64,000 nt of DNA from Synergistales bacterium (GTDB taxonomy: Bacteria; Synergistota; Synergistia; Synergistales; JAFGMB01), in NCBI GenBank assembly GCA_963666205.1, contig OY762654.1, positions 1,504,001 through 1,568,000 of the forward strand, written 5' to 3'. Position numbers and translations under genes: made by a program. Under the pieces are notes generated by a model. The model did no database searches, was not told the origin of the DNA, and was given only the letters and a program-made list of their open reading frames with translations. Positions 20,180 to 32,776 of the stretch are shown piece by piece; position 1 is the stretch's first letter; every line of letters begins with the position of its first letter.

Positions 20180-20470
20180 TTAAGAACATTCCCCACAGGA
20201 GGTACAATCACCCGGACAGCTGGTATGTCCTTCTTCAAGGTCAGCCAGGACAGGAAGATAAAGATCCAGGATCTCCTGGATGTCTCCTGCACATCAGGTC
20301 CCGGAAGGATTCATTACCGGGCAGTTATCTCCGGTACAGGCTCCGGTGATCCTCTTTATATCCTCAAGGGTGCGTGCCCCATCTATGGTTATGGCTGAAA
20401 GGATCTGCATCTTGTTGACATTCTTGCAATAACAGACTGTTGCGGCGCCGCCTTTTTCAAGCCATGACAT
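20180..20470 (-). CDS. BFD-like [2Fe-2S]-binding protein with in-frame UGA at a Cys position (candidate selenoprotein), 96 aa; absent from the ORF track
   Basis: MSWLEKGGAATVCYCKNV...GACTGDNCPVMNPSGT-U-CAGDIQEIL...CPGDCTSCGECS; RBS AGGGGG; SECIS-like hairpin 12 nt after the UGA. Confidence 0.8.
20264..20281 (-). promoter_or_regulatory. Candidate bacterial SECIS hairpin
   Basis: ATCCAGG-AGAT-CCTGGAT perfect 7-bp stem starting 12 nt downstream of the TGA at 20296-20294. Confidence 0.65.
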
Positions 20471-20927
20471 TAATGTTTTCCCCCTGTCTTACAGTTCCGT
20501 GTTCATTTATGAATTGCTCTACGGCTGCCCTTATCTGGTCTCTGACGATCCTGGACCTGGCAACCATTTCATCCCATTTCCCTGTGAAGGCTCCTATATC
20601 CTCAAAAGGCCAGTCGATCTTTTCATGCTGCCCCGGGAATATGGGACACCTGGCGGATTTGGCCTCATCACATACAGCTATTACATAATCGTATGTCCTG
20701 CCCTCTTCGAAGAATTCCATTATACCGTTAACTTTGTTAGCGGAAATGTCGACATCGATCTCCTTCATTACTTCCACGGCAAGGGGGTTTACTCCCGGAC
20801 CCGGCTCAAGGCCGGCACTCTCGGCTTCGAAACACTCTCCGCCCAGCATGTTCATGAAAGCTTCACCTATCTGGCTTCGAGCCGAATTCTGTCCACATAT
20901 GAATAATACACGAATTTTATCACTCAT
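20457..20927 (-). CDS. arsC: Thioredoxin-coupled arsenate reductase (LMW-PTP fold)
   Basis: ICGQNSARSQ P-loop, VCD....RCPIFPG redox Cys pair, WPFED. Confidence 0.85.
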   Translation of the reverse strand: MSDKIRVLFICGQNSARSQIGEAFMNMLGGECFEAESAGLEPGPGVNPLAVEVMKEIDVDISANKVNGIMEFFEEGRTYDYVIAVCDEAKSARCPIFPGQHEKIDWPFEDIGAFTGKWDEMVARSRIVRDQIRAAVEQFINEHGTVRQGENINVMA

Positions 20928-20979
20928 TCTAACAATCCTCCTGAAGTGTATCAGCTTACCCCAATATATAAGCTTTTTC

Positions 20980-23115
20980 TCAAGCTTGTGTAACAATACC
21001 CATTCTGATAGTCCGGGCAGAGTTCAGAACAGCCAGAAGTGCCACACCAACATCGGCGAACACTGCTTCCCAAAGCCCCGATATGCCGGCCAGGCCAAGA
21101 ATAAGGACTAACCCTTTAACTCCAAGGGCAAGGCTTATATTCTGCCAGACTATCCTCCTGGTCTGCCTGGCTATGGATATAGCATCTGCCACTTCTGAAG
21201 GTCTGTCGCTCAGGATAACCAGGTCAGCTGTTTCAACGGCTGCAGCTGAACCCAGTCCACCCATTGCTACTCCGACATCGGCGGCAGCAAGGGAGGGAGC
21301 ATCATTAATGCCATCCCCTGCAAAGAGGACCTTTCCTCCGATTTTGTTTCGGATGTTCTTTACCTGTTCGACCTTTTCGTGGGGAAGGAGTTCCGCCCTG
21401 TAATCGTCTATTTCCAGAGCTGCAGATACGGTTGTTGCAACTCCATACCTGTCGCCTGTAAGCATCTGTATCGTCCTGATCCCCATCTCTTTCAGTTTTC
21501 TTACCGCAAGGGGAGCATCTTCGCGGATCACATCAGAAACGACAAGGTAACCCTGATATCTATCATCCAGGGCAGCATGTACCACCGTACCTCCTTCTTC
21601 GACATGGGGTACCACTATACCCCTGTTTTCAAGAAGGGCTGCTTTCCCAGCGAGTATGAAATGGCCATTTTCTTCTGCTCGAACACCCTCGCCAGGGATC
21701 TCTTCCATCTCAATATTTATTGATGCCGGTTTCTTACCATAGGCTTTCATTACTGAACGGGCAATAGGGTGATTAGAGTTCATCTCAGCCATTGCTACGG
21801 TTGTCAGAAGCTCCTCGGGAGTCACCCCGGCAACCGGCCGCAGTGAAGTCACGTTAAATACCCCTTCTGTTAAAGTTCCCGTCTTGTCAAAGATAACTGA
21901 AGTCACCTCAGTAAGGGCATCCAGAACGTTACCTCCTTTTACAAGGAGACCATGTCTGGATGCAGCGCCTATTCCTCCGAAGTATCCCAGGGGAATACTT
22001 ACCATAAGGGCACAGGGACAGGATATTATCAGCAACACCAGAGCTCGATATATCCAGGAAGAAAATGAACCATACCCCATAAACGGGGGAAGAAGGGCTA
22101 CAAGAACCGCCAGGGTAACAACCGCAGGTGTATAATAACGGGCAAACTTTGTGATAAACCTTTCAGTGGGGGACTTCTGTGCAACTGCAAATTCGACCAG
22201 TTCAAGGATCCGGGCAATGGCGCTCTCCTTATATGGCGATGTAACCCGGATCTTAAGGACTCCCGTGAGGTTGAGACTTCCTCCATAAAGGGAGTGCCCA
22301 ACGCCTGCTGAGACAGGTACAGGTTCTCCCGTCAGGGGGGATGTATCCACATGGGAAGATCCTGTGAGCACCATTCCATCCAGAGGGATCTTCTCTCCCG
22401 GTTTTACTATCAGCATATCTCCGGGATTAACAGTGTCCGGAGAAACATTTATGATCTGATTCCCTTTGAGAAGGTTTGCGAAGGCCGGTTTTGATGCAAG
22501 CAGTGATTTTATGGATTTTCTGGAATTTGAGGCTGCCACATCCTGAAAGAATTCACCGACCCGGTAAAAGAGCATGACCCCCACGGCCTCTCCGAAGAAC
22601 CCAAGGGCAATAGCCGCAAAAGTGGCAAGGGTCATGAGGAAGAACTCGTCAAAAAGATGTCCCCGAATGACGTTCCTGAAAGCAGATTTAATAACACTCA
22701 GGCCACAGATAAGGTAGGCCGAGAGGAACACGGAATAGTAACCCAGGGAATAAGGAGTGGCTTTCAATTTCTCCCCAAAGACTATCCCTCCCATAAAGAG
22801 CAGCCCTGCAAGAAGGAGTTTCTTTATTTCGGGAAGGTTCTCCCTGTTAAAAATCGCTGACATGATACTCCCTTGCCCGGGAACAGCAGGAGTCATATTC
22901 TCTTCAGTAAGGATCTCCTCCACTTCCACATCCGGCTCTATCTTTTGGATAACCTGCAATATGGTTTCGAGGCCTATCTCTTCCCCATACATATTCAGAA
23001 GGGACTCGTCAAAATCTATGGATACCCCGCTGACACCGGGAAGACTCCCGAGAACCTGTTCCATCGTAGCGGCACAGCCTCGACACCCAAGATTGATCAA
23101 TCGATATTGTTTCAT
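20980..23115 (-). CDS. cadA: Heavy-metal P1B-type ATPase (Cd/Zn/Pb, CadA/ZntA-like)
   Basis: N-terminal CxxC HMA, TGEP, CPC, DKTGTLT, HP, GDGINDAP, FADVG. Confidence 0.9.
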   Translation of the reverse strand: MKQYRLINLGCRGCAATMEQVLGSLPGVSGVSIDFDESLLNMYGEEIGLETILQVIQKIEPDVEVEEILTEENMTPAVPGQGSIMSAIFNRENLPEIKKLLLAGLLFMGGIVFGEKLKATPYSLGYYSVFLSAYLICGLSVIKSAFRNVIRGHLFDEFFLMTLATFAAIALGFFGEAVGVMLFYRVGEFFQDVAASNSRKSIKSLLASKPAFANLLKGNQIINVSPDTVNPGDMLIVKPGEKIPLDGMVLTGSSHVDTSPLTGEPVPVSAGVGHSLYGGSLNLTGVLKIRVTSPYKESAIARILELVEFAVAQKSPTERFITKFARYYTPAVVTLAVLVALLPPFMGYGSFSSWIYRALVLLIISCPCALMVSIPLGYFGGIGAASRHGLLVKGGNVLDALTEVTSVIFDKTGTLTEGVFNVTSLRPVAGVTPEELLTTVAMAEMNSNHPIARSVMKAYGKKPASINIEMEEIPGEGVRAEENGHFILAGKAALLENRGIVVPHVEEGGTVVHAALDDRYQGYLVVSDVIREDAPLAVRKLKEMGIRTIQMLTGDRYGVATTVSAALEIDDYRAELLPHEKVEQVKNIRNKIGGKVLFAGDGINDAPSLAAADVGVAMGGLGSAAAVETADLVILSDRPSEVADAISIARQTRRIVWQNISLALGVKGLVLILGLAGISGLWEAVFADVGVALLAVLNSARTIRMGIVTQA

Positions 23116-23161: not shown

Positions 23162-24328
23162 TTAACCCGCCATCAGACCGAATATGGTCCCTGCCAGAGT
23201 TGAAAGAACTACCACAAGACTGACATAGACCACGGTTTTTTTCGTTCCGATAACGCTCCTTATGACAAGCATGTTGGGTAGGGAAAGAGCCGGACCGGCC
23301 AGTAGAAGAGCCAATGCCGGCCCTTTACCCATCCCTGCACCAAGAAGACCCTGGAGAATAGGCACCTCCGTAAGAGTTGCAAAATACATGAAAGCACCGG
23401 CAATGGAAGCAAAGAAATTAGAAAAGATCGAATTACCTCCCACAAGGGATGCGACCCACTGGCTTGGGATCAATGCTTCGTGGCCGGGTCTTCCCAGAAG
23501 AAAACCTGCGACCAGAACTCCGCCAAAAAGAAGGGGAAGTACCTGAAGGGCATATCCCCAGGTAGAACTCATCCATTCCTGTCTTTCTTCTTTGGAGAAC
23601 CATATAACTGTTGAAGCCGCTACGGAGACAAGAGCAGCCGCGGCTATATACCACTTAATCGAATAAGCCGCCGCCCAGAAACCCACCGGCACCTTTGGTG
23701 CTGCCCAGTTGGCAAAGACAAGAAAGACAACCATGCTGGCCATGTGCCACACTGTTTTCCAAAGGGGACGGGTATTATCATCTTCTTCGATCCGGGCAAA
23801 ACCTGCCTGACGTTCCCTTTCCTCATGACGGAAGATAAAGGCCATGGATATACCGATGATAACGCTGAAGGCAATAGCCCCCACAGCCCTTGCAATACCC
23901 ATCTCCAGACCGAGGACACGGGCTGTCAGTATTATGGCAAGAACATTTATGGCCGGTCCGGAATAAAGAAAAGCTGAGGCCGGGCCAAGTCCTGCTCCCC
24001 GCATGTAGATACCTGCAAAAAGAGGAAGAACTGTACAGGAGCAGACAGCGAGTATCGTACCTGAGACGGCGGCAACACTGTAGGCGACCATCTTCTTTGC
24101 TCCGGCTCCAAGATACTTCATCACCGACTGTTGACTTACGAATACCGTAATGGCTCCAGCTATGAAAAATGCCGGGACAAGACACAAAAGAACGTGCTGA
24201 CGGGCATACTCGTGAGTCATGGCAAGAGCTTCAAGGGCACCACTGCTTATCCTTGTACTCTCAACGGGAAGAAAATAGAAAAGGGCAAAGAAAAGAAATA
24301 TATACAGGAACTTCTTTCTGTCTTCCAT
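23162..24328 (-). CDS. ArsP/DUF318-family permease
   Basis: CLVPAFFIAGAI, AVCSCTVLP, FLYSGPAIN, MYFATLTEVPI, GPALSLP. Confidence 0.85.
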   Translation of the reverse strand: MEDRKKFLYIFLFFALFYFLPVESTRISSGALEALAMTHEYARQHVLLCLVPAFFIAGAITVFVSQQSVMKYLGAGAKKMVAYSVAAVSGTILAVCSCTVLPLFAGIYMRGAGLGPASAFLYSGPAINVLAIILTARVLGLEMGIARAVGAIAFSVIIGISMAFIFRHEERERQAGFARIEEDDNTRPLWKTVWHMASMVVFLVFANWAAPKVPVGFWAAAYSIKWYIAAAALVSVAASTVIWFSKEERQEWMSSTWGYALQVLPLLFGGVLVAGFLLGRPGHEALIPSQWVASLVGGNSIFSNFFASIAGAFMYFATLTEVPILQGLLGAGMGKGPALALLLAGPALSLPNMLVIRSVIGTKKTVVYVSLVVVLSTLAGTIFGLMAG

Positions 24329-24446
24329 CTTTGAAAAAACCTCCATTAAGTGAAAATTTATTCACATATATTCTTTAAAACTTCCCCGATGATTCAAATC
24401 CACCGGGGTTTTTATTAACCTGTACAGGCCTGCATAAATGGAGGCA

Positions 24447-24680
24447 CTACTTCGACAGCAATTCCTTCATTCTATCTTCAGTCGGGATTTTCCCGGCCAC
24501 TACCACTTTTCCGTCAATTACAAGACCAGGGGTGGACATTACACCGAACTGCATTATATCCACTATCTCCGTAACTTTCTCAAGTTCATAATCTATACCG
24601 AGATCTTTAGCTGCTTTCTCTGCCACCTCGGCCATTTTCTTACACTTTGCACATCCTGTACCAAGAATCTGTATTTTCAT
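24447..24680 (-). CDS. Small thioredoxin-like redox-active disulfide protein
   Basis: MKIQILGTGCAKC...GVMSTPGLVIDG. Confidence 0.88.
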   Translation of the reverse strand: MKIQILGTGCAKCKKMAEVAEKAAKDLGIDYELEKVTEIVDIMQFGVMSTPGLVIDGKVVVAGKIPTEDRMKELLSK

Positions 24681-24796
24681 TTTAAAACCACCTGCCGATT
24701 TTAGATTTGCGATTTTGGATTGAAACCCGGTTAAATTCATAAGATCAAAACAGTTAAAATCCTGTACATTAGAATTTAATATTTAAACTCAAAAAC

Positions 24797-25126
24797 TTAT
24801 TCCTTACTGCTACAGCTGCATGTCAGCAACGAAGTTAGAGGCTCTTCTCCCTGCACCACAAGTTCAACACATTTAAGAAGGGTAGTCAGGCACTTCATTC
24901 TGAGGCTGTAATAAATATGAAGGCCATCCCTTCGGTCATCAAGAATATCAAGATTTTTCATGAGAGTCAGGTGTTTGCTTATGCTGGTCCTGTCAAGGGT
25001 AAACTTCTCGGCTATGTCACAGACACACATTTCGCCGCCTGCAAGAACCTCAACAATTCCAAGACGTACCGGATGGGCCAGTCCCTTAAGTATGGCTGCC
25101 TTTTTTTTCTGTATCTGATCACTCAT
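24797..25126 (-). CDS. arsR: ArsR/SmtB-family metalloregulator
   Basis: LAHPVRL.I..L..GEMCVCDI, ISKHL, C-terminal Cys. Confidence 0.88.
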   Translation of the reverse strand: MSDQIQKKKAAILKGLAHPVRLGIVEVLAGGEMCVCDIAEKFTLDRTSISKHLTLMKNLDILDDRRDGLHIYYSLRMKCLTTLLKCVELVVQGEEPLTSLLTCSCSSKE

Positions 25127-25146
25127 CCTGATGATCTCACCTCCAT

Positions 25147-25184
25147 TATGTGAATATATTACCACATAGCCATTTATCCTGCAA
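25147..25184 (-). promoter_or_regulatory. arsR promoter and operator palindrome
   Basis: TTGCAG-17-TAATAT (TGTG extended) overlapping TATGTG-N10-CACATA; related site at 24348-24368. Confidence 0.6.
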
Positions 25185-25352
25185 GAGTGTTAAAAACATT
25201 TCAAGACCCTGTCTATTTTACTTGCTCCAGACCTGAAGAGTTACCTTTGAATTTAGATGGGGGAAGGATTATGTATGTTTTTAAAGGAAGGAATATTAAT
25301 AAAAATACTATATCAAGACCTGACCCTAACTTGACGAACTTAAAATTGAAAG

Positions 25353-25428
25353 TGGTGGATCATACAGGAATCGAACCTGTAACCCCCTGATTAAGAGTCA
25401 GGTGCTCTGCCAATTGAGCTAATGATCC
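25353..25428 (-). tRNA. tRNA-Lys (anticodon CUU)
   Basis: 76 nt GGATCAT..TAGCTCAATTGGCAGAGC..CTGA-CT-CTT-AA-TCAG..GGTTCGATTCC..ATGATCC-A-CCA. Confidence 0.95.
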
Positions 25429-25567
25429 ACTTTATTCTCTTGAGATGGTTCAATGCAAAGGGAATAATAACAGAAAAAAGGGCTCAGGGAAAGGGGAAAA
25501 CATCTGCAAATCAAAAAAAGACCGAATTTATGATCTCACCCTGAGTCCCTTCTCTTTCCGTTTACAT

Positions 25568-25879
25568 TCAAAGATCCGAAATAAATCTCAGTCGGAGCCT
25601 TCCAGCACCTTCGACGAAAAAAAGGAAATCCCCTTCCTTTCCAGGCCCGATCAGTTCCATATGGGCAGAAACATCCTCATGGATCCAGCATGTGATATTA
25701 TCGGTTGTCTGAAAGGGTTCATAACCCTTGAGTTCTTCAGGTTTTCCCCAGAGGCCCAACGGACCCTTGAAAGCATTTCATCAGCCGGAAATACAGACGC
25801 CCATCCTGATATGAAAATGCCCTCCCTTTGAGGAAACAATACCGAGCCAGTATTTCGAGGTTATCCTTATCTTTTTCAT
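25568..25879 (-). CDS. 103-codon ORF with two adjacent in-frame UGA codons (C-I-S-G-U-U); candidate selenoprotein, possibly HesB/IscA-like fold
   Basis: ATG 25879, TGA TGA at codons 33-34, reading continues in frame into the track ORF 25568-25759; hairpin downstream. Confidence 0.55.
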
Positions 25880-25936
25880 GAAATCAACTTTCCATCAGAA
25901 TTTTATTAGTCCTCATAATGGGTAAACCATGAGGTA

Positions 25937-28297
25937 TCAGAATTCAGCCTGCTCGGACCTGGCAATTATCTCTTCCTGATGATCCCTGTCGAGATCGACG
26001 AAATAGTCACTGTACCCCGCCACCCTCACAAGAAGATCCCTGTAGTCCTGGGGATTTACCTGGGCATCTCTCAAAGTTCCGGCATCAACCACGTTGAATT
26101 GCATATGATGACCGTTGAATTTGAAGTATGTCCTTATGAGGTTCATGAATTTGCGGATACCATCTTCTCCCTTAAGGACAGATGGCAGGAACTTCTGGTT
26201 AAGAAGAGTGCCTCCCGTCTTTATCTGGTCCATCTTCCCGAGAGATTTGACAACTGCCGTTGGGCCGTTCCTGTCTGCTCCATGCTCTGGTGAAGTTCCG
26301 TCAGACTCGGGCATGCCTGCCAGCCTTCCGTTGGCGGAAGCTCCAAGCTTCTTCCCGAAATAGATGTGACAGGTGGTAGAAAGCATGTTCAGGTAATATC
26401 GGGTCCCCTTTGTATTGGGTTTACCCTCTATGAACCTGTTGAGAGAGGCAAAGACCCTCTGCATGATCTCATCGGCATGGTCATCGTCATTCCCGAAGAA
26501 GGGGGTGTGGTTGAAGAGGAATTGCCTGAGGTCCTCCCTGCCTTCAAAATTCGAAAGAAGAACATCATTAAGCTCGGGAAGAGTCATCTTATTATCCTGG
26601 AATACATGTTTTTTTATGGCTGAAAGGCTGTCCGTAATAGTACCTATTCCGCAGCACTGGATGTAGTTGGTGTTGTAGCGGGGACCTCCGTTGTAATAGT
26701 CCCTGCCATTCTTTATGCAGTCCTGTATTACTACTGAGAGGAAGGTGGCAGGAACTTCCTTACCATACATCTTCTCGATAATGTTATTCACCTTTATCTT
26801 AAGATCCACTATATATTCAAGCTGTTTCTCGAAGGCATCGTAAAGATCATCGAAGTTTGTGAAAGATCCAGGCTCCCCGGTCATCAGTCCGATCTGCTCA
26901 CCGGTCATGGGATCGACACCATTGTTCATGGCTAGTTCAAAGATCTTGGGTACATTCAGATAGCCCGTAAGTATATAGGCCTCTTTGCCAAAACATCCTG
27001 TTTCGATGCATCCGCTGCATCCGCCACCCCGTGCATCTTCAAGGGATTTTCCCGCCCTGACCTGCTCGGCCACGACCGCATCGGCATTGAAAACCGAAGG
27101 ATATCCGTAACCCTTCCGGATCACTTCGCTCGCCTTTTTCAAAAAATGATCCTGGGTCACCTGACTTATCTGCACATTGACCTGGGGCTGAAGAAGGTGG
27201 ATCTCGTCAAAGGCTTCAAGGAGTATGAAGGAAACCTCGTTTACCCCTGATCTTCCATCCCTGGTGAGCCCTCCCAGGTTTATATTGGTGAAATCGTTAT
27301 AGGTCCCGCTTTCCTGGGCCGTCACCCCCACCTTGGGAGGGGCCGGCTGATTGTTGAACTTTATAAGGAAACATTCAAGGAGTTCCTTTGCCTGTTCACG
27401 GGTCAGGGAACCATCCTCGATCCCCTTCTCGTAAAAGGGTCCCATGTGCTGATCCAGGTGACCCGGGTTCATGGCATCCCAGCCATTGAGCTCAGAAATG
27501 GTACCCAGGTGGACGAACCAGTACATCTGGAGGGCTTCATGCAGGTCCCTGGGGGCATTGGCCGGCACCCACCGGCACACTTCCGCGATCTTCAGGAGTT
27601 CTACTTTCCTTCCAGGATCCTTTTCTGTTTCTGCCATTTCCTCCGCAAGGTCTGCGTGCCTGTTGGCAAAATGGATTGCCGCATCGCAGGATATGAGCAT
27701 GGCCTTCAGCTCTTCTTCCTTGTCAATGGCCTCGGGATCATTAAGATAATCAAGCTTTAAAAGGGCTTCGCTGATCTCTTCCTTGAAATCCAGCATCCCT
27801 TTCTCATAAATGATCCCGTCAAGGGTGGTGTGGCCGGCTGCCCTCTGTTCCATGAACTCAGTGAACATACCAGCCGAATAGGCCCGTTTCCATTCTTCCG
27901 GAACCACCTGAAATATACGATCCCTCATAGTACGTCCATTCCAGTAGGGCAGGACTTCCTTTTCATAGGTCGCGATATCCTTGGGATCCACATCGTAGGA
28001 GGTCATGGGTCTTGAATTCAATACCCTCAAGTCTTCCACGGTATGGCAGTTGAGTTCGGGAAAAGTGGAAACAGCCTTTGGACGTGGCCCCCTCTCACCA
28101 ACGATCACTTCGCCCTCTCCGATATATATGGTCTGTTTCGCCCACAGATTGCTGAAATTAAGGGCTCTCATCACAGGAGCCGAGTACTTGCCTGCATTTT
28201 CCCGATAGAATTCCGTTACAAGCTGTGCTCTTTCGATCGATACAGACGGCTTTGTGTTAAGGCTTTCAGTTCTAAGTTTTTCAACTCTTGGGGTCAT
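25937..28297 (-). CDS. hypD: Glycyl radical enzyme, trans-4-hydroxy-L-proline dehydratase
   Basis: FTEFMEQRA.GH, ELN.WDA, FNNQPAPPKVG..ESGTYNDF, SGCIETG, TGY.N, STTCH, RVAGYS match the HypD active-site pattern. Confidence 0.88.
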   Translation of the reverse strand: MTPRVEKLRTESLNTKPSVSIERAQLVTEFYRENAGKYSAPVMRALNFSNLWAKQTIYIGEGEVIVGERGPRPKAVSTFPELNCHTVEDLRVLNSRPMTSYDVDPKDIATYEKEVLPYWNGRTMRDRIFQVVPEEWKRAYSAGMFTEFMEQRAAGHTTLDGIIYEKGMLDFKEEISEALLKLDYLNDPEAIDKEEELKAMLISCDAAIHFANRHADLAEEMAETEKDPGRKVELLKIAEVCRWVPANAPRDLHEALQMYWFVHLGTISELNGWDAMNPGHLDQHMGPFYEKGIEDGSLTREQAKELLECFLIKFNNQPAPPKVGVTAQESGTYNDFTNINLGGLTRDGRSGVNEVSFILLEAFDEIHLLQPQVNVQISQVTQDHFLKKASEVIRKGYGYPSVFNADAVVAEQVRAGKSLEDARGGGCSGCIETGCFGKEAYILTGYLNVPKIFELAMNNGVDPMTGEQIGLMTGEPGSFTNFDDLYDAFEKQLEYIVDLKIKVNNIIEKMYGKEVPATFLSVVIQDCIKNGRDYYNGGPRYNTNYIQCCGIGTITDSLSAIKKHVFQDNKMTLPELNDVLLSNFEGREDLRQFLFNHTPFFGNDDDHADEIMQRVFASLNRFIEGKPNTKGTRYYLNMLSTTCHIYFGKKLGASANGRLAGMPESDGTSPEHGADRNGPTAVVKSLGKMDQIKTGGTLLNQKFLPSVLKGEDGIRKFMNLIRTYFKFNGHHMQFNVVDAGTLRDAQVNPQDYRDLLVRVAGYSDYFVDLDRDHQEEIIARSEQAEF

Positions 28298-28301
28298 AAT
28301 T

Positions 28302-29210
28302 TCATCCTCCTATCTGCACTTCAATTCCATGCTTACAGAACAGATCCTGGATATGAAGCATCTTATCTTTCCCTGGGGGTAAGGTCTCTTTCAATTTATA
28401 ATCGCTTTTCAAGTTGGAATACTTGGATTTTCCAAAATCATGGTAGGGCAACAGGTTCACGGAGTAAGAACCTTCAAGGGTCCTGAGAAAGTCTGCGGTG
28501 GCATTCAGATTTTCAAGATCATCGTTTATACCCGGGATAACAGGTATCCGGATAAAAACCCTGGTCCCGCTTGCGGAAAGAACCCTGAGGTTGGAGAGGA
28601 CAAGCTCGTTCCTGACCCCGGTGTATTTAAAATGTTTTTCAGGATCCATCATCTTGAGATCATAAAGGAAGAGATCCGTGAACGGAGTTACTTGTTTTAT
28701 GACCTGTAAAGGAGCGAAACCCGTTGTGTCAACAGTTCGATGAATACCCTCATTGCCGCAGGCCTTCAGAATTTCAATAAGAAATTCATGCTGGGAAAGA
28801 GGTTCTCCTCCCGAAAAAGTCACACCCCCTCCTGAATCATCAAAGAAGGGAATATCCTTTCGTATCTCTTTCATCAGATCCTTGACCGTTATCTCTTTCC
28901 CCATCATCTCCAGTGCCCTTGTGGGACAGCTTTCAGCACAGGTGCCGCAGGAAGTGCAGAATGAACTGTCTATCCGTATACCCCCCTCAGAGGCGAGGTA
29001 CAATGCAGATTCAGGGCACACAGAAACACATGTACCACAGTCAATACACCTTGAGCGGCGATAAACAAGTTCAGGTTCCGGCCTTATTCCTTCAGGGTTA
29101 TGACACCACCAGCAGGACAAGGGGCAACCTTTAAGAAATACGGTGGTCCTTATTCCGGGCCCGTCATGGAGGGAATATTTCTTTATGCTGAATATCACGC
29201 CATTCTTCAA
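28302..29210 (-). CDS. Glycyl-radical enzyme activase with 2x[4Fe-4S] insert (HypD activase)
   Basis: HDGPGIRTTVFLKGCPLSCWWCHNPE, two CxxCxxCxxxCP motifs, SGGEP. Confidence 0.93.
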   Translation of the reverse strand: MKNGVIFSIKKYSLHDGPGIRTTVFLKGCPLSCWWCHNPEGIRPEPELVYRRSRCIDCGTCVSVCPESALYLASEGGIRIDSSFCTSCGTCAESCPTRALEMMGKEITVKDLMKEIRKDIPFFDDSGGGVTFSGGEPLSQHEFLIEILKACGNEGIHRTVDTTGFAPLQVIKQVTPFTDLFLYDLKMMDPEKHFKYTGVRNELVLSNLRVLSASGTRVFIRIPVIPGINDDLENLNATADFLRTLEGSYSVNLLPYHDFGKSKYSNLKSDYKLKETLPPGKDKMLHIQDLFCKHGIEVQIGG

Positions 29211-29905
29211 AGGTTTTTCTCCCCTTCAGGATGATCAAGTTCGTGGGAACTGGCAAAGTAATATTTTTTTATATAACGCTCCTGAACATAATATGACCAA
29301 TGCACATCCCTCACAAATTTCGAGGCACCCTCGAAATCTCCTTTGTCAAAAAGGTTTACAAGTTCACGATGCTCACCCATGGAGTTCATCTCCCACTCCT
29401 TAAGGAAACCCTTTTTCCTGGGAAAATCGTAAAGCCTCTGCTTGTAGATACGGACCATATGGACAAGATCAGAGTTCGTCGAAAGATCTATGTAGATATC
29501 GTGAAAGGCAAGATTTTTTTCATAGAAGTCATCAAAATCGTTTCTGTAAAGAGCATCATCCATTTCCCGGATAAGTCTGTTCATGCTGTCTGTATCCGCT
29601 TTGCGAAATTTGAAAGCATTGTTGATTATGGCCGTGCTTTCCAGAGAACCCAGGATCTCGTAGATATTCGATATTTCCGGAAGGTCCAATACCCGAACCA
29701 TAACGCCCCGCCTTGGAAATATACGAACAAACCCTTCTGCCTCCAATTGAAAAAGAGCATCCCTCAAGGGCGTTTTACTTATTCCAAGTTCGTTGGCCAT
29801 TTCACCAAGCATCAGAAATTCACCAGGCTCAACGGCACCTTCGTTCATCTGGGTGCGAAGAAAGGTATAGACTTGTTCTCTGAGTGATTTTACCGGTGAT
29901 GGCAT
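29207..29905 (-). CDS. GntR-family (FCD) regulator
   Basis: SLREQVY..LR, ELGISKTPLRDAL..LE.EG, FCD N..FH. Confidence 0.9.
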   Translation of the reverse strand: MPSPVKSLREQVYTFLRTQMNEGAVEPGEFLMLGEMANELGISKTPLRDALFQLEAEGFVRIFPRRGVMVRVLDLPEISNIYEILGSLESTAIINNAFKFRKADTDSMNRLIREMDDALYRNDFDDFYEKNLAFHDIYIDLSTNSDLVHMVRIYKQRLYDFPRKKGFLKEWEMNSMGEHRELVNLFDKGDFEGASKFVRDVHWSYYVQERYIKKYYFASSHELDHPEGEKNL

Positions 29906-29942
29906 GGTGTTCCCTCCATCTTATGATGTTTGGATCCCAATG

Positions 29943-29997
29943 TTGTATGTAATATATCAGTGATGTATAAATTACCACAGTTTCTTCTTTCGGTCAA
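29943..29997 (-). promoter_or_regulatory. Promoter and putative GntR operator, copy 1
   Basis: TTGACC-17-TAATTT with TGTG extension, then TATACATCACTGATATATTACATACAA; homologous to 36290-36344. Confidence 0.7.
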
Positions 29998-30054
29998 TTG
30001 TCTACTCTTATAAAGCATTCCTCTAACCTTATATGGGTATCTGGATAATAGTTT

Positions 30055-31017
30055 TTACTGCTCCAGTTCCTGTCCTGCTCCTTTTAAGAGAGCTGATTCG
30101 TAAACATCATTTGCCACGACCAGGTCGAACAGAGCCATCCCTACCGTCTTGACAAGAATGGTCCCCTTTTGAACCCCTTCTTCCCTGGCAATACAGTCGG
30201 ACATGAGAGTAATTTTGTCGGGATCCAGGTAGTGGTTTTCAAGGGGGGTAATAAGATCTCCCGATTCTTCAAGGGCATGTTCACAATCTATAAATATTCT
30301 GTCAGCTATTGTGAAAAAACTGTCAGGAAATTCACGCTGTGTCGGGAGGGCAGAACCCACTCCAACGTAAAAACGATCTTTCAGCAGTCCTGGATCATCG
30401 GGGAGAACCGGTTCTTGAGATGGAGTGGCGGAAATGATTATTTCCGAATTTTCAACTACTTCTCTATTTGATGCACAAGCTTTTACAATAACATCCGGTA
30501 ACCGGGAACAAAGTCTATCTACATATTCAGTAAGCTTGTCAGAGCAGGAGTCAAATACCCGTATTTCTCTAACAGGTCTGGCCTCTGCAGCGAAGAGGGC
30601 CTGGGTAAACCCCTGGGCACCTGCCCCGAATATCCCTAAAGTTGAGGCTTCCCTTGAAGCCAGTCTCCTTATAGCACTTCCTCCGACTGCTCCTGTGCGG
30701 TGTGCAGTAAGTGCTCTTCCATCCATAACTGCAAGGGGTGCTCCCGTTTCATTGTCATATAACTCCACCAGTCCATTTATAAATGGGCGGCCCTTGGCTG
30801 GATTATCTGAATTAAGGGTGAGGATCTTCACTCCCCATACTCTTTCGGTACCGCAAGGCATGAGTAATAATTTGTTACCATTTATTTCAAGAGAGGAGCG
30901 AAGTGGCATGGAAAAGTTCCCGCTGCCATAGATCTTGTAAGCTTTCTCTATGGCATTCATCGTTTCCTGAAGGGGTAAGGCTTTTTCCATCTGAGAACTG
31001 TTGAACCATAACATCAT
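30055..31017 (-). CDS. Ornithine cyclodeaminase / mu-crystallin family protein
   Basis: LLMP, GVK, LTA.RTGA, GAGAQG, ATPS, KTVGMAL.D. Confidence 0.88.
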   Translation of the reverse strand: MMLWFNSSQMEKALPLQETMNAIEKAYKIYGSGNFSMPLRSSLEINGNKLLLMPCGTERVWGVKILTLNSDNPAKGRPFINGLVELYDNETGAPLAVMDGRALTAHRTGAVGGSAIRRLASREASTLGIFGAGAQGFTQALFAAEARPVREIRVFDSCSDKLTEYVDRLCSRLPDVIVKACASNREVVENSEIIISATPSQEPVLPDDPGLLKDRFYVGVGSALPTQREFPDSFFTIADRIFIDCEHALEESGDLITPLENHYLDPDKITLMSDCIAREEGVQKGTILVKTVGMALFDLVVANDVYESALLKGAGQELEQ

Positions 31018-31080
31018 GAATACCTCCCTGGTAATTTAATAAGCTCTTGAAAAGAGATCATTAAAGTTGAAAACAACTCC

Positions 31081-32613
31081 TTATTCCTGGACCGGTATAG
31101 TCAGTGCCGAAGGGCAGATAGCAAGGCCGCCCTTTGCCGTACACCTTAGCTCGGGCGGCATCATTTTACCTACTGAATACATGGCATCGATCGTTTCATC
31201 AAGGGGAACCGGATTCTCATAGCCCCCCATTACAAGATCTGCGCAGAGAAATGCATTTGCCGCAGCTGCTGCATTCCTTGTATGACAGGGAATTTCCACA
31301 AAACCCTGGACAAGGTCGCATACGCTTCCCATGGTGTTCTGAAGAGATATGGCTGCTGCATTCAGAGCTTCTTCGGGGAGTGCCCCTGCAAACTCAGCTA
31401 CACCAGCGGCACCCATGGCACCAGCCACACCTATTTCCACCTGGCAACCGGCTACTTCTGCTGCAAAAGTTGCTCTCTTTGCCACTACAAGACCTACGGC
31501 AGATGCGGCAAAAAGCGCTTTCGCAAGTTCACCACCGCAAAGGCCCATTTCCTGCTTAAGTGTTACAAATACACCTGGCACAGTACCTGCGGAACCGGCA
31601 GTAGGAGCTGCACAGACAAGGCCCTTGGCACCGTTTATGTGCATTACCGCCATTGCCCGGGCAGCCGCTCGAGTATGGATCCCGCCGATAGCAACCCTGT
31701 TATTCTTTTCGGCTTCCATAACATTGCGGGCAGAGGGATAAAGGAGTTTCATAGAAGGGATTTTCTCGGCCAATCCTGCTTCCACAGCTTTTTCCATTAC
31801 TCCGTAACGGCGAAGCATTTCCTCCTTGACATCTTCCAGTGTCAATCCAAGAAGCCTGGCTTCGTATTCCATGGCTGCTTCCCCAAGAGATTTGCCCTCG
31901 TCCCTGCACCATGAAAGCATCTCCTGTGCCGACTCGAACAGGGTTTCTCCTGTTTTAGGAAAAAATACCGGCTCAGCCACAAGGACTGCCTTGACGTTTT
32001 CCAGCTCTGTTATTGAATCCAACAGTTCACAGGACGGCTTAACAAGGAGAGTCAGCTGGTTAAAAAAGCCTTCTTCTGAAGAAACTTCTTCTTTCCATTC
32101 CATCTTCTCAGGGGAAAGAATTTCCCCTCCAAGGCTTTTATCGGAAAAAACCATTATCTCGTATGTGTCACCTGAAAAGTCCGTCTTAAAACCATTTACA
32201 TGGGTGAATTGAACAGCTCCTCCTCCAATGGATCTGGCACAGACGGTTACCTTCTTTCCACTTTCTCCTGTCATGCGCACATCCGCCACGTTGGGGTGGT
32301 CTTTAACGGTCAGATCCTCAACCGGAAAGGAAATATGAATACCTCTTTCTTCCGCTTCTTCAAGAGCTGTATAGAAAAGATCATCCGTTATCTCCAGGCC
32401 CATCATCCCCACAGCAAAGGCCTTGTCACTCCCCTGCTGGCGAAATGTCTGCCCATAAGAGCCGTCTTTATCAAAAGCACAGATCACAAAACGAGGTTTT
32501 TCACCCAATATATAACGGCAGACCCTCCCAATATGGAAGCTTGCGGCCGTATGGGAACTGCTTGGACCATGCATTATGGGTCCGAGCACATGGTTGAAAA
32601 TGGATACTGACAT
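31081..32613 (-). CDS. Fe-S L-serine dehydratase-family protein, fused beta+alpha subunits
   Basis: GPIM.GPSSSHTA, SIGGG, AAPTAGSAG, GCQ.E.G, CDLV.G.VEIPC, ELRCTA.GGLA. Confidence 0.85.
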   Translation of the reverse strand: MSVSIFNHVLGPIMHGPSSSHTAASFHIGRVCRYILGEKPRFVICAFDKDGSYGQTFRQQGSDKAFAVGMMGLEITDDLFYTALEEAEERGIHISFPVEDLTVKDHPNVADVRMTGESGKKVTVCARSIGGGAVQFTHVNGFKTDFSGDTYEIMVFSDKSLGGEILSPEKMEWKEEVSSEEGFFNQLTLLVKPSCELLDSITELENVKAVLVAEPVFFPKTGETLFESAQEMLSWCRDEGKSLGEAAMEYEARLLGLTLEDVKEEMLRRYGVMEKAVEAGLAEKIPSMKLLYPSARNVMEAEKNNRVAIGGIHTRAAARAMAVMHINGAKGLVCAAPTAGSAGTVPGVFVTLKQEMGLCGGELAKALFAASAVGLVVAKRATFAAEVAGCQVEIGVAGAMGAAGVAEFAGALPEEALNAAAISLQNTMGSVCDLVQGFVEIPCHTRNAAAAANAFLCADLVMGGYENPVPLDETIDAMYSVGKMMPPELRCTAKGGLAICPSALTIPVQE

Positions 32614-32776
32614 AAGATCACCCCTTAAAAAAATATCCATTACAGATACCAACAGGATGACGGCAAAGCCGATCCCGGAAAATAGCAGGAAGCAGACTCT
32701 CCTGACAAAACCCTTTCAAGGGCCCTTTCGTCCCTGAAATAATATATCCCTTAAAGTTCACACTAATACAGCTGTA

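Follow-up and report, generated by a model that had tools for sequence, protein, structure and literature searches.

The DNA analyzed here, hereafter the window, is a stretch of 64,000 nucleotides (nt) from a Synergistales bacterium (assembly GCA_963666205.1, contig OY762654.1, positions 1,504,001 to 1,568,000 of the forward strand). On its minus strand, 57 nt past the stop codon of an upstream glycyl-radical enzyme gene, hypD, begins a short open reading frame (ORF) that contains two consecutive in-frame UGA codons. We conclude that this frame is, with high probability, a conserved and misannotated gene in which UGA codons 33 and 34 are both read as selenocysteine (Sec, U) with a single in-frame Sec insertion sequence (SECIS), and we refer to it as the Sec-Sec gene. 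Its elements, in window positions, are as follows.

25568 to 25879, minus strand: predicted Sec-Sec protein gene, 103 residues, with ATG at 25879 and stop codon TGA at 25570-25568
25778 to 25783, minus strand: UGA-UGA pair, codons 33 and 34, motif G-U-U, recognized by conservation of the GGN-TGA-TGA column
25752 to 25766, minus strand: core of the putative SECIS hairpin, GGGUCC-GUU-GGGCCU, recognized by pairing and covariation in alignment A4 (below)
25746 to 25772, minus strand: the same hairpin with a weak lower stem, UUUCA/UGGGG, folded with RNAfold (66 nt from the first UGA)

Translated from the ATG, the minus strand reads MKKIRITSKYWLGIVSSKGGHFHIRMGVCISG-UGA-UGA-NAFKGPLGLWGKPEEL...RFISDL-UGA, which gives 103 sense or recoded codons, 69 of them between the UGA pair and the stop. 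An earlier reading of this DNA, the original prediction, had proposed this start, the TGAs at 25783-25778, the 69 further codons, the 57-nt gap to hypD, and a hairpin GGGUCC-GUU-GGGCCU that starts 11 nt past the second UGA and 14 nt past the first and has a weak lower stem; each of these was recovered when we reread the sequence. The C-x-x-G-U-U motif that it described is present in the window, but its cysteine, C29, is not conserved across the family.

The whole 2.95-Mb genome contains 117 in-frame TGATGA sequences that are preceded by at least 25 open codons and followed by at least 40. Among these, the pair in the window is the only one with a hairpin of at least 6 bp and a loop starting with G at 14 to 26 nt after the first UGA. 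TGA is not reassigned genome-wide, because both the Sec-Sec gene and hypD themselves end in TGA. On the opposite strand, an ORF of 128 codons (25445-25831, plus strand) overlaps the gene; it has no Pfam match and is probably its shadow.

Conservation of the UGA pair

A six-frame search that reads through stops identified full-length relatives, 41 to 55% identical, in many genomes of the same order. We aligned 19 of these sequences (18 distinct; alignment A1), the loci having been picked by protein similarity. The GGN-TGA-TGA column is identical in all 19 translated loci, with the start codon 31 to 36 codons before the pair and 69 to 80 codons after it, and 10 of 10 additional, more divergent loci have GGN-TGA-TGA in the same place in a frame that is open on both sides. 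Invariant residues in A1 lie on both sides of the pair as well as in it (S8, W11, V15, G19, F22, G32, U33, U34, G39, P40, G42, L43, G45, P47, C64, E82, L86, G93, and R96), so that the relatives span the UGA codons and are conserved before and after them. The stretch upstream of the pair has a coding signature in which third positions vary most: over the 27 codons before it, per-site differences are 0.32, 0.28, and 0.59 at codon positions 1, 2, and 3, and synonymous codon differences number 1287, compared with 383 and 232 in the shifted frames, which contain stops.

A profile of the 19 relatives, searched against 268 genomes of the phylum (E ≤ 1e-8), gave 51 matches in 46 genomes. Forty-six of the matches contain two TGA codons, five contain none, and a single-UGA copy was found in none of the 268 genomes; no CU or UC intermediate is therefore visible in this search. 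Four genomes (G019, G028, G054, and G034) contain, 3 to 10 kb from the Sec-Sec gene, paralogs (L080 to L083) with Cys-Cys at the UGA columns; these keep Cys64 and are called "hypothetical protein" in public records.

Searching 1.84 billion representative proteins with the profile returned 33 hits, one of them spurious, and most of the hits are half genes. The N-terminal pieces comprise 31 to 45 residues and end at Gly32, and the C-terminal pieces comprise about 55 to 83 residues and begin after the pair. Only a few relatives are full-length; their residues at the UGA columns are Cys-Cys (P0002, "...ILGCCSVFRGAAAYLG...") or Phe-Cys (P0003). Since Cys-Cys and Phe-Cys paralogs align there, both positions agree with the Sec/Cys pairing used in selenoprotein prediction. 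A 1510-residue match to the profile, P0004, proved to be a low-complexity repeat and was discarded. A single-sequence word search of 5.8 billion proteins gave no candidate, and the ESM Atlas, queried with the natural Cys-Cys paralog P0002, gave no usable match. One protein from a Logan contig (P0018, 95 amino acids; 29 bits on NF041239, a family described below) has Trp-Trp at both Sec columns; it represents either a UGA-UGA pair called under a code in which TGA is Trp or a true Trp-Trp form.

These results bear on the reading of each UGA separately. If only one were Sec, and the other were skipped or decoded by a tRNA for Trp, Cys, or Gly, one would have an explanation for the Phe-Cys paralog, which retains the second position alone, for Trp-Trp at both columns in one metagenomic protein, and for the single Sec of NF041239-type relatives (one TGA in 20 of 20 matches). 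We consider this improbable, because a UGA beside a sense codon occurs in 0 of the 51 homologs, Cys aligns to both positions in the Cys-Cys paralogs, both UGAs stand at SECIS distances used elsewhere in the genome, and the Trp-Trp protein may be a gene call under another code.

The half genes in the databases raise a different alternative, in which a 32-residue peptide gene ends in a tandem stop and a gene for a protein of about 70 residues starts just after it. Gene callers do annotate the locus as split, and 11 of 18 distinct sequences have an ATG immediately behind the pair. The window and 6 other distinct sequences, however, have a non-start codon there (AAT, ACG, or ACT), and further members have AGY. 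Moreover, the Cys-Cys paralogs are single polypeptides, AlphaFold2 needs both halves for one domain, and a conserved tandem stop would leave unexplained why the hairpin described below is restricted to the UGA forms. We therefore regard two separate genes as very improbable and treat the locus as one gene.

Finally, the frame could be a decayed gene or an assembly error, the latter a danger that the original prediction itself had pointed out. The two stops speak for this, and nothing further does. A contig from a genomic run is identical to the window over 25396-26400 (1005 bases). Metatranscriptome contigs from two runs of one study, belonging to a slightly different strain, cover 25396-26198 and 25450-26050 and keep TGATGA; their differences within the ORF, at 25679 and 25799, are third-position and synonymous, and their single-base insertions, after 25473 and 25916, fall outside it. 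These contigs bridge the Sec-Sec gene to hypD and to a downstream tRNA gene; in a second study, the runs left the Sec-Sec gene uncovered. With the same TGATGA present also in 45 genomes of the phylum and in metagenome-assembled genomes (MAGs) labelled as five other groups, we give decay or misassembly next to no credence.

Distribution and annotation

Using a DNA pattern that combines G-U-U with the hairpin core, we screened 185,579 species genomes and obtained 36 matching records, 35 of them family members; the remaining record, L059 (Prevotellaceae), is a chance match. Twenty-nine members are labelled Synergistales, Synergistaceae, Thermovirgaceae, Acetomicrobium, or Aminiphilus. The other six are MAGs labelled Myxococcaceae, Deltaproteobacteria, Acidobacteriota, Planctomycetota, Eisenbacteria, or "uncultured bacterium," labels that can be wrong for MAGs, and four of these six sequences form a subfamily of their own.

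Public C-terminal halves are named "hypothetical protein" or "trimethylamine--corrinoid methyltransferase." The latter label, found in the Acetomicrobium and Synergistaceae records behind P0035, P0036, and P0006, has no Pfam or NCBIfam support and looks like a propagated misannotation.

A conserved hairpin downstream of the UGA pair

The hairpin was examined in alignment A4, which consists of 29 sequences chosen on protein similarity alone and in which columns are counted from the first U of the pair. The helix formed by columns 17-23 and 27-33 (7 bp) is paired in 95.8% of 189 cells, and its covariation score is 0.264, compared with 0.185 ± 0.013 in shuffled alignments; 0 of 500 shuffles reached either value. 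When the partner strand is shifted by 1 to 3 columns, pairing drops to between 28 and 76%, and covariation drops too. Pair 17-33 is A-U in 12 sequences, G-C in 6, C-G in 1, U-G in 1, and unpaired in 7, and pair 19-31 is G-C in 25 and A-U in 2. In two divergent members, Gly39 and Leu43, both invariant elsewhere, are jointly replaced by Ser and Phe, which turns pair 19-31 from G-C to A-U. The register of the lower stem varies between homologs.

Codon use follows the helix as well. Within the hairpin, third codon positions are nearly fixed (GGC in 15 of 18, CCG in 17 of 18, NNG in 18 of 18, and GGC in 17 of 18 sequences), and at the next Gly and Pro codons they are free, so that the freezing is confined to the hairpin. 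All 8 pairs form in 14 of the 19 Sec-Sec genes, and between 5 and 8 form in each. The Cys paralogs, which encode GAAAYLG rather than GPxGLxG, form 3, 4, 3, 3, and 5 of the 8 pairs; judged from their sequences, the hairpin is missing from them. What the original prediction had taken for a SECIS-like element is, across the family, a conserved and covarying stem-loop at SECIS distance. At gathering thresholds, Rfam finds a tRNA alone in the window and no family for the hairpin.

The base right after the second UGA (25777, minus strand; A4 column 7) is A in 29 of 29 sequences. Residue 35, which it begins, varies among Met, Thr, Asn, and Ser, and Ser is always encoded by AGY; the fixed A looks like a nucleotide-level constraint.

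Sec machinery, spacing, and proposed decoding

The genome contains a tRNA-Sec gene (77 bits), SelA, SelB, and a Sec-containing SelD, the set of Sec machinery that the proposed decoding calls for. It also contains two copies of grdA, two copies of grdB, and two Sec genes of the NF041239 type. From the hairpins of this same genome we read the spacing between each UGA and the first loop base:

selD: 17 nt
grdB, two copies: 18 and 18 nt
NF041239-type genes, two: 21 and 21 nt
grdA: about 25 nt
Sec-Sec gene: 20 nt from the first UGA and 17 nt from the second

Since 20 and 17 nt compare with 17 to 25 nt in six other Sec genes, both UGAs lie within the spacing that the SelB of this genome already uses. 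The apical pentamer follows the pattern C-G-N-N-G in selD (CGGCG), both grdB copies (CGGUG), one NF041239-type gene (CGUUG), and the Sec-Sec gene (CGUUG), so that its loop is of the local type.

The two NF041239-type genes (L013 and L014) each contain a single Sec and lie outside the window, at 578159-578407 (minus strand) and 2421837-2422058 (plus strand) of G000:C1. Their motifs are G-S-G-U and G-F-U. In both, a hairpin with a GUU loop lies 21 nt past the UGA, and the N terminus of the second (2421837-2422058) is signal-peptide-like.

From this anatomy, we propose that the one bacterial SECIS directly downstream of the pair recruits SelB-GTP-Sec-tRNA(Sec). Its loop would lie 20 nt past the first UGA and, one translocation later, 17 nt past the second. 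Because both distances occur at single-UGA genes here, a single hairpin would serve both insertions, with a fresh SelB complex presumably binding in between. In the product, a beta-hairpin would carry a vicinal G-Sec-Sec site at its tip.

Several points weigh against this reading. That selenium is incorporated and that either UGA is read through is our inference, and to our knowledge two successive SelB-dependent insertions at one hairpin have never been demonstrated. The RNA-library contigs do not prove transcription, transcript ends, or an operon. Folded alone, the hairpin in the window is not unusually stable (z of 0.77; 155 of 200 shuffles are as stable or more so), which makes the support for it comparative, and with two G-U pairs and 7 of 8 pairs formed it is among the weaker copies. 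Its conservation could be partly protein-level, because the GC-rich helix overlaps conserved Gly-Pro-x-Gly-Leu codons; compensatory change is seen in 2 of the 7 pairs only, and the counts of 0 in 500 shuffles overstate the significance because the sequences are related. Taken together, the homologs, the Cys-Cys paralogs, the covarying hairpin, and the Sec machinery nevertheless support what had been predicted from the window, namely, a vicinal Sec-Sec protein decoded through one SECIS.

Protein fold and family relationships

Modeled by AlphaFold2 with Cys in place of Sec, the protein is predicted to form one compact domain (pLDDT, 90.9; pTM, 0.82) in which residues 33 and 34 occupy the turn between the strands 21-31 and 35-44. 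A Pfam scan (E ≤ 0.1) matched 0 families, ArsD included among those not matched. The sole NCBIfam match, to NF041239 (the "CC/Se motif family (seleno)protein"), scores 19.7 bits, where the cut-off is 40. Across the 19 members of the Sec-Sec family, that model reaches E ≤ 0.01 in 2 and exceeds its cut-off in 0. An alignment of the two families with hhalign gave 92% probability (E of 6.6e-7, 65 columns), with the single Sec of NF041239 aligned to U33; the Phe-Cys paralog keeps the second position of the pair. In 41 related genomes (E ≤ 1e-6), NF041239-type genes occur in 16, and the 20 matches, each with its one TGA, have the motif G-U-[AGS].

The original prediction had also suggested a likeness to HesB/IscA proteins. 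At most a weak resemblance of fold is seen (best Z, 4.7); PF01521 and TIGR01911 have no match in a six-frame search of the genome (E ≤ 0.01), and a profile search of PDB sequences gave nothing below an E value of 0.2 and no IscA. On profile comparison and the structure model, the Sec-Sec family is related to NF041239 as a distant sister, and its fold is IscA-like at most.

Genomic neighborhood and possible function

The genes on either side of the Sec-Sec gene are the following.

25937 to 28297, minus strand: hypD, glycyl-radical trans-4-hydroxy-L-proline dehydratase, the upstream neighbor (NF043068, 1207 bits, cut-off 1100; Pfam PFL-like and Gly_radical)
25353 to 25428, minus strand: tRNA-Lys(CUU), between the Sec-Sec gene and the metal(loid) cluster (ARAGORN; Rfam tRNA, 74.5 bits)
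24797 to 25165, minus strand: ArsR-family regulator, with which the downstream metal(loid) cluster begins (Pfam HTH_5, E of 3.8e-10)
24447 to 24740, minus strand: MTH895/ArsE-family thioredoxin-like protein (TIGR00412, 106.8 bits, cut-off 62; Pfam Thioredoxin_3)
23162 to 24346, minus strand: ArsP_1-type permease (Pfam PF03773, E of 4.9e-75)
20980 to 23115, minus strand: heavy-metal P-type ATPase (Pfam E1-E2_ATPase, Hydrolase, and HMA)
20457 to 20996, minus strand: low-molecular-weight phosphatase/ArsC-like protein (Pfam LMWPc; TIGR02691, 96 bits, below the cut-off of 174)

Downstream of the Sec-Sec gene and on the same strand, the order is thus tRNA-Lys, ArsR, ArsE-type thioredoxin, ArsP_1 permease, P-type ATPase, and ArsC-like phosphatase. 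In NCBIfam, the permease also resembles the efflux transporters SO_0444 and SaoE, but at 118.6 and 112.3 bits the matches fall short of the cut-offs. Because these metal(loid) genes follow in the window and a glycyl-radical enzyme was found within 2.6 kb of the gene in 0 of 35 related loci, the link to hypD that had been suggested looks accidental. A promoter and terminator scan of 24700-26100 gave counts at shuffle level and no terminator-like site between hypD and the gene or after the gene; one site inside the ORF (25834-25820) is probably due to chance. Upstream, hypD belongs to a cluster (25937-32652, minus strand) with a fused-looking L-serine dehydratase alpha-domain protein, an ornithine cyclodeaminase-family protein, a GntR/FCD regulator, and a glycyl-radical activase. 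This gene set is consistent with hydroxyproline fermentation, and elsewhere the genome has two glycine reductase loci.

We counted neighbors at the 35 loci, taking up to two ORFs on each side (124 ORFs in all, from related genomes and with no control set). The commonest Pfam families are ArsP_1 (10), SBF/ACR3 (9), ArsR-type HTH_5 (9), thioredoxin (6), and low-molecular-weight phosphatase/ArsC-like (5), followed by Usp, DsbD_TM, and CMD (4 each) and by Aminotran_5, cation-efflux (CDF), and Thioredoxin_3 (3 each). An ArsR, ArsC-like, ArsE-like, ArsP_1, or ACR3 gene lies within 2.6 kb at 17 of the 35 loci, or at 20 when membrane thioredoxin and CcdA-like proteins are added, and ArsP_1-type permease homologs stand beside the Sec-Sec gene at 11. 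Five loci have arsR, acr3, and, after 62 to 96 nt, the Sec-Sec gene on one strand, with ACR3 confirmed by TIGR00832 at 375 bits; at four of them a convergent ArsP_1 permease lies within about 75 nt, and in the fifth (L070) the gene lies at the end of the contig. In one Synergistaceae subgroup (L044, L054, L069, and L052), it is a CDF cation-efflux gene and not acr3 that precedes the Sec-Sec gene, by 59 to 91 nt, so that the partner transporter differs between lineages.

With arsR, acr3, ArsP-type permeases, and thioredoxins as neighbors, we infer a role in soft-metal(loid) binding or in low-potential redox chemistry. Neighborhood and chemistry make it a real, if less than even, prospect that the function is metal(loid)-related, with a diselenol site binding As(III) or similar. 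The two selenols, with the conserved Cys64 as a possible third ligand, would serve to bind As(III) or another soft metalloid or metal, and the protein might act as a buffer or chaperone for the adjacent arsenic-type efflux genes. Our most specific proposal is correspondingly tentative: that this is the first bacterial case of two consecutive SelB-dependent Sec insertions from one in-frame SECIS and that a Se-Se-S site, formed with Cys64, sequesters As(III), or a soft metalloid akin to it, for efflux of the ACR3/ArsP type.

Four findings tell against such a function. No counted metal(loid) or thiol-redox neighbor is present at 15 of the 35 loci; the loci are kin and not independent; in the window, the tRNA gene separates the Sec-Sec gene from the ars-type cluster; and no arsenic- or metal-binding family matches the protein in the Pfam and NCBIfam scans.

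The same Sec-Sec protein may instead be a diselenide/diselenol redox centre of very low potential that exchanges electrons with thioredoxin-type partners and does not bind metalloids. Animal thioredoxin reductase has a Gly-Cys-Sec-Gly centre, of which the site described here would be an all-selenium analog. A membrane thioredoxin, a DsbD_TM (CcdA-like) protein, or both lie beside the gene at 8 of the 35 loci, often at 11 to 134 nt and on the same strand, and the cluster in the window includes an ArsE-type thioredoxin and an ArsC-like reductase. A 2026 review of prokaryotic selenoproteomes (PMC13188914) states, moreover, that uncharacterized selenoproteins are mostly thought to be redox proteins. 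On the other side, Pfam and the AlphaFold2 model reveal no thioredoxin fold and no CxxC or UxxC motif, and efflux genes (ACR3, ArsP_1, and CDF) are at least as frequent among the neighbors as redox genes. A redox role with the thioredoxins is the leading alternative, though we consider it less likely than not. The two roles are not exclusive, because arsenate reduction needs both.

Significance

According to the usual teaching, bacterial Sec insertion ties a single UGA to a single hairpin that lies a set distance away. Two insertions from one hairpin would constitute a natural test of SelB reload speed and of ribosome spacing tolerance; if the proposed decoding is true, the hairpin is reusable within one translocation step, and the spacing rule tolerates at least 3 nt. 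In chemical terms a vicinal diselenol is extreme: its redox potential is very low, and it binds As, Hg, and Sb with very high affinity. Such a group is therefore of interest both for the way anaerobes detoxify metalloids and as a motif for protein engineering. The gene, being split in two, is invisible to current annotation, and Synergistota selenoproteome counts from genomes are too low for this reason.

Comparison with known systems

NF041239, a hypothetical selenoprotein first predicted in Moorella thermoacetica, resembles the Sec-Sec family in its length of about 100 residues, in a Sec that follows Gly in a beta-hairpin turn, and in the subsequent G-x-P motif and "W-[IV]" strand, and the two families coexist in these genomes. 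It differs in having one Sec and a Cys-rich C-terminal tail, whereas the Sec-Sec family has two Sec residues and, as a third chalcogen residue, Cys64. In structure, the seven top matches of the model are all of the IscA/SufA/HesB class, the best being 1r94_A with a Z value of 4.7 (root mean square deviation, 3.5; 78 residues), although Z values of this size fall in the range that the structure tool itself calls common; the best Foldseek hit is IscA, 1s98_A (E of 9e-3; TM, 0.35).

ArsD is an arsenic metallochaperone that binds As(III) through a vicinal Cys pair and is encoded in ars operons. As a small soluble protein with a vicinal chalcogen pair in an ars-type operon, it is our working analogy for the proposed role, and if that role is true, the Se-Se-S site would be a selenium-based counterpart of this chaperone. 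Unlike ArsD, the Sec-Sec protein has no Pfam ArsD match, its predicted fold differs, and no ArsA partner occurs among the 124 neighbor ORFs.

Among selenoproteins, the family table of the 2026 review (PMC13188914) includes 119 families with their Sec motifs; its multi-Sec motifs are of the types UxxU, UxxxxU, CxU, and similar, and none of the 119 as tabulated there is U-U. CU and UC dipeptides were described by Haft and Gwadz (10.1101/2022.07.06.499078), with no U-U in the text examined. The CU-dipeptide selenoproteins of that account and of the review (SaoL, SaoC, SaoB, HgcA, MbdU, and KCU-star) are similar to the Sec-Sec protein in having a vicinal chalcogen pair that is thought to bind metals or organometallics, in database genes that are cut at the UGA, and in metal(loid)-related neighborhoods. 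They differ in that one Sec stands beside one Cys and in that they belong to unrelated protein families. A literature search for adjacent Sec residues in bacteria found no paper; supplementary alignments, which could hold U-U, lay outside its coverage.

Eukaryotic SECIS elements reside in the 3' untranslated region and have no fixed distance to the UGA. The only published consecutive Sec-Sec that we found is that of algal PDI_e, whose GUGUU motif contains two consecutive Sec residues and was called the first such case by its authors (Jiang et al. 2020, PMC7539508). Judged against it, the description of the window's Sec pair as highly unusual is fair for bacteria; for Sec-Sec as such, the algal protein had already been published in 2020. 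PDI_e belongs to the eukaryotic protein disulfide isomerase family, and its SECIS element is predicted. The Sec-Sec gene, by contrast, has a hairpin of bacterial type within its own coding sequence, and the spacing to each of the two UGAs is fixed.

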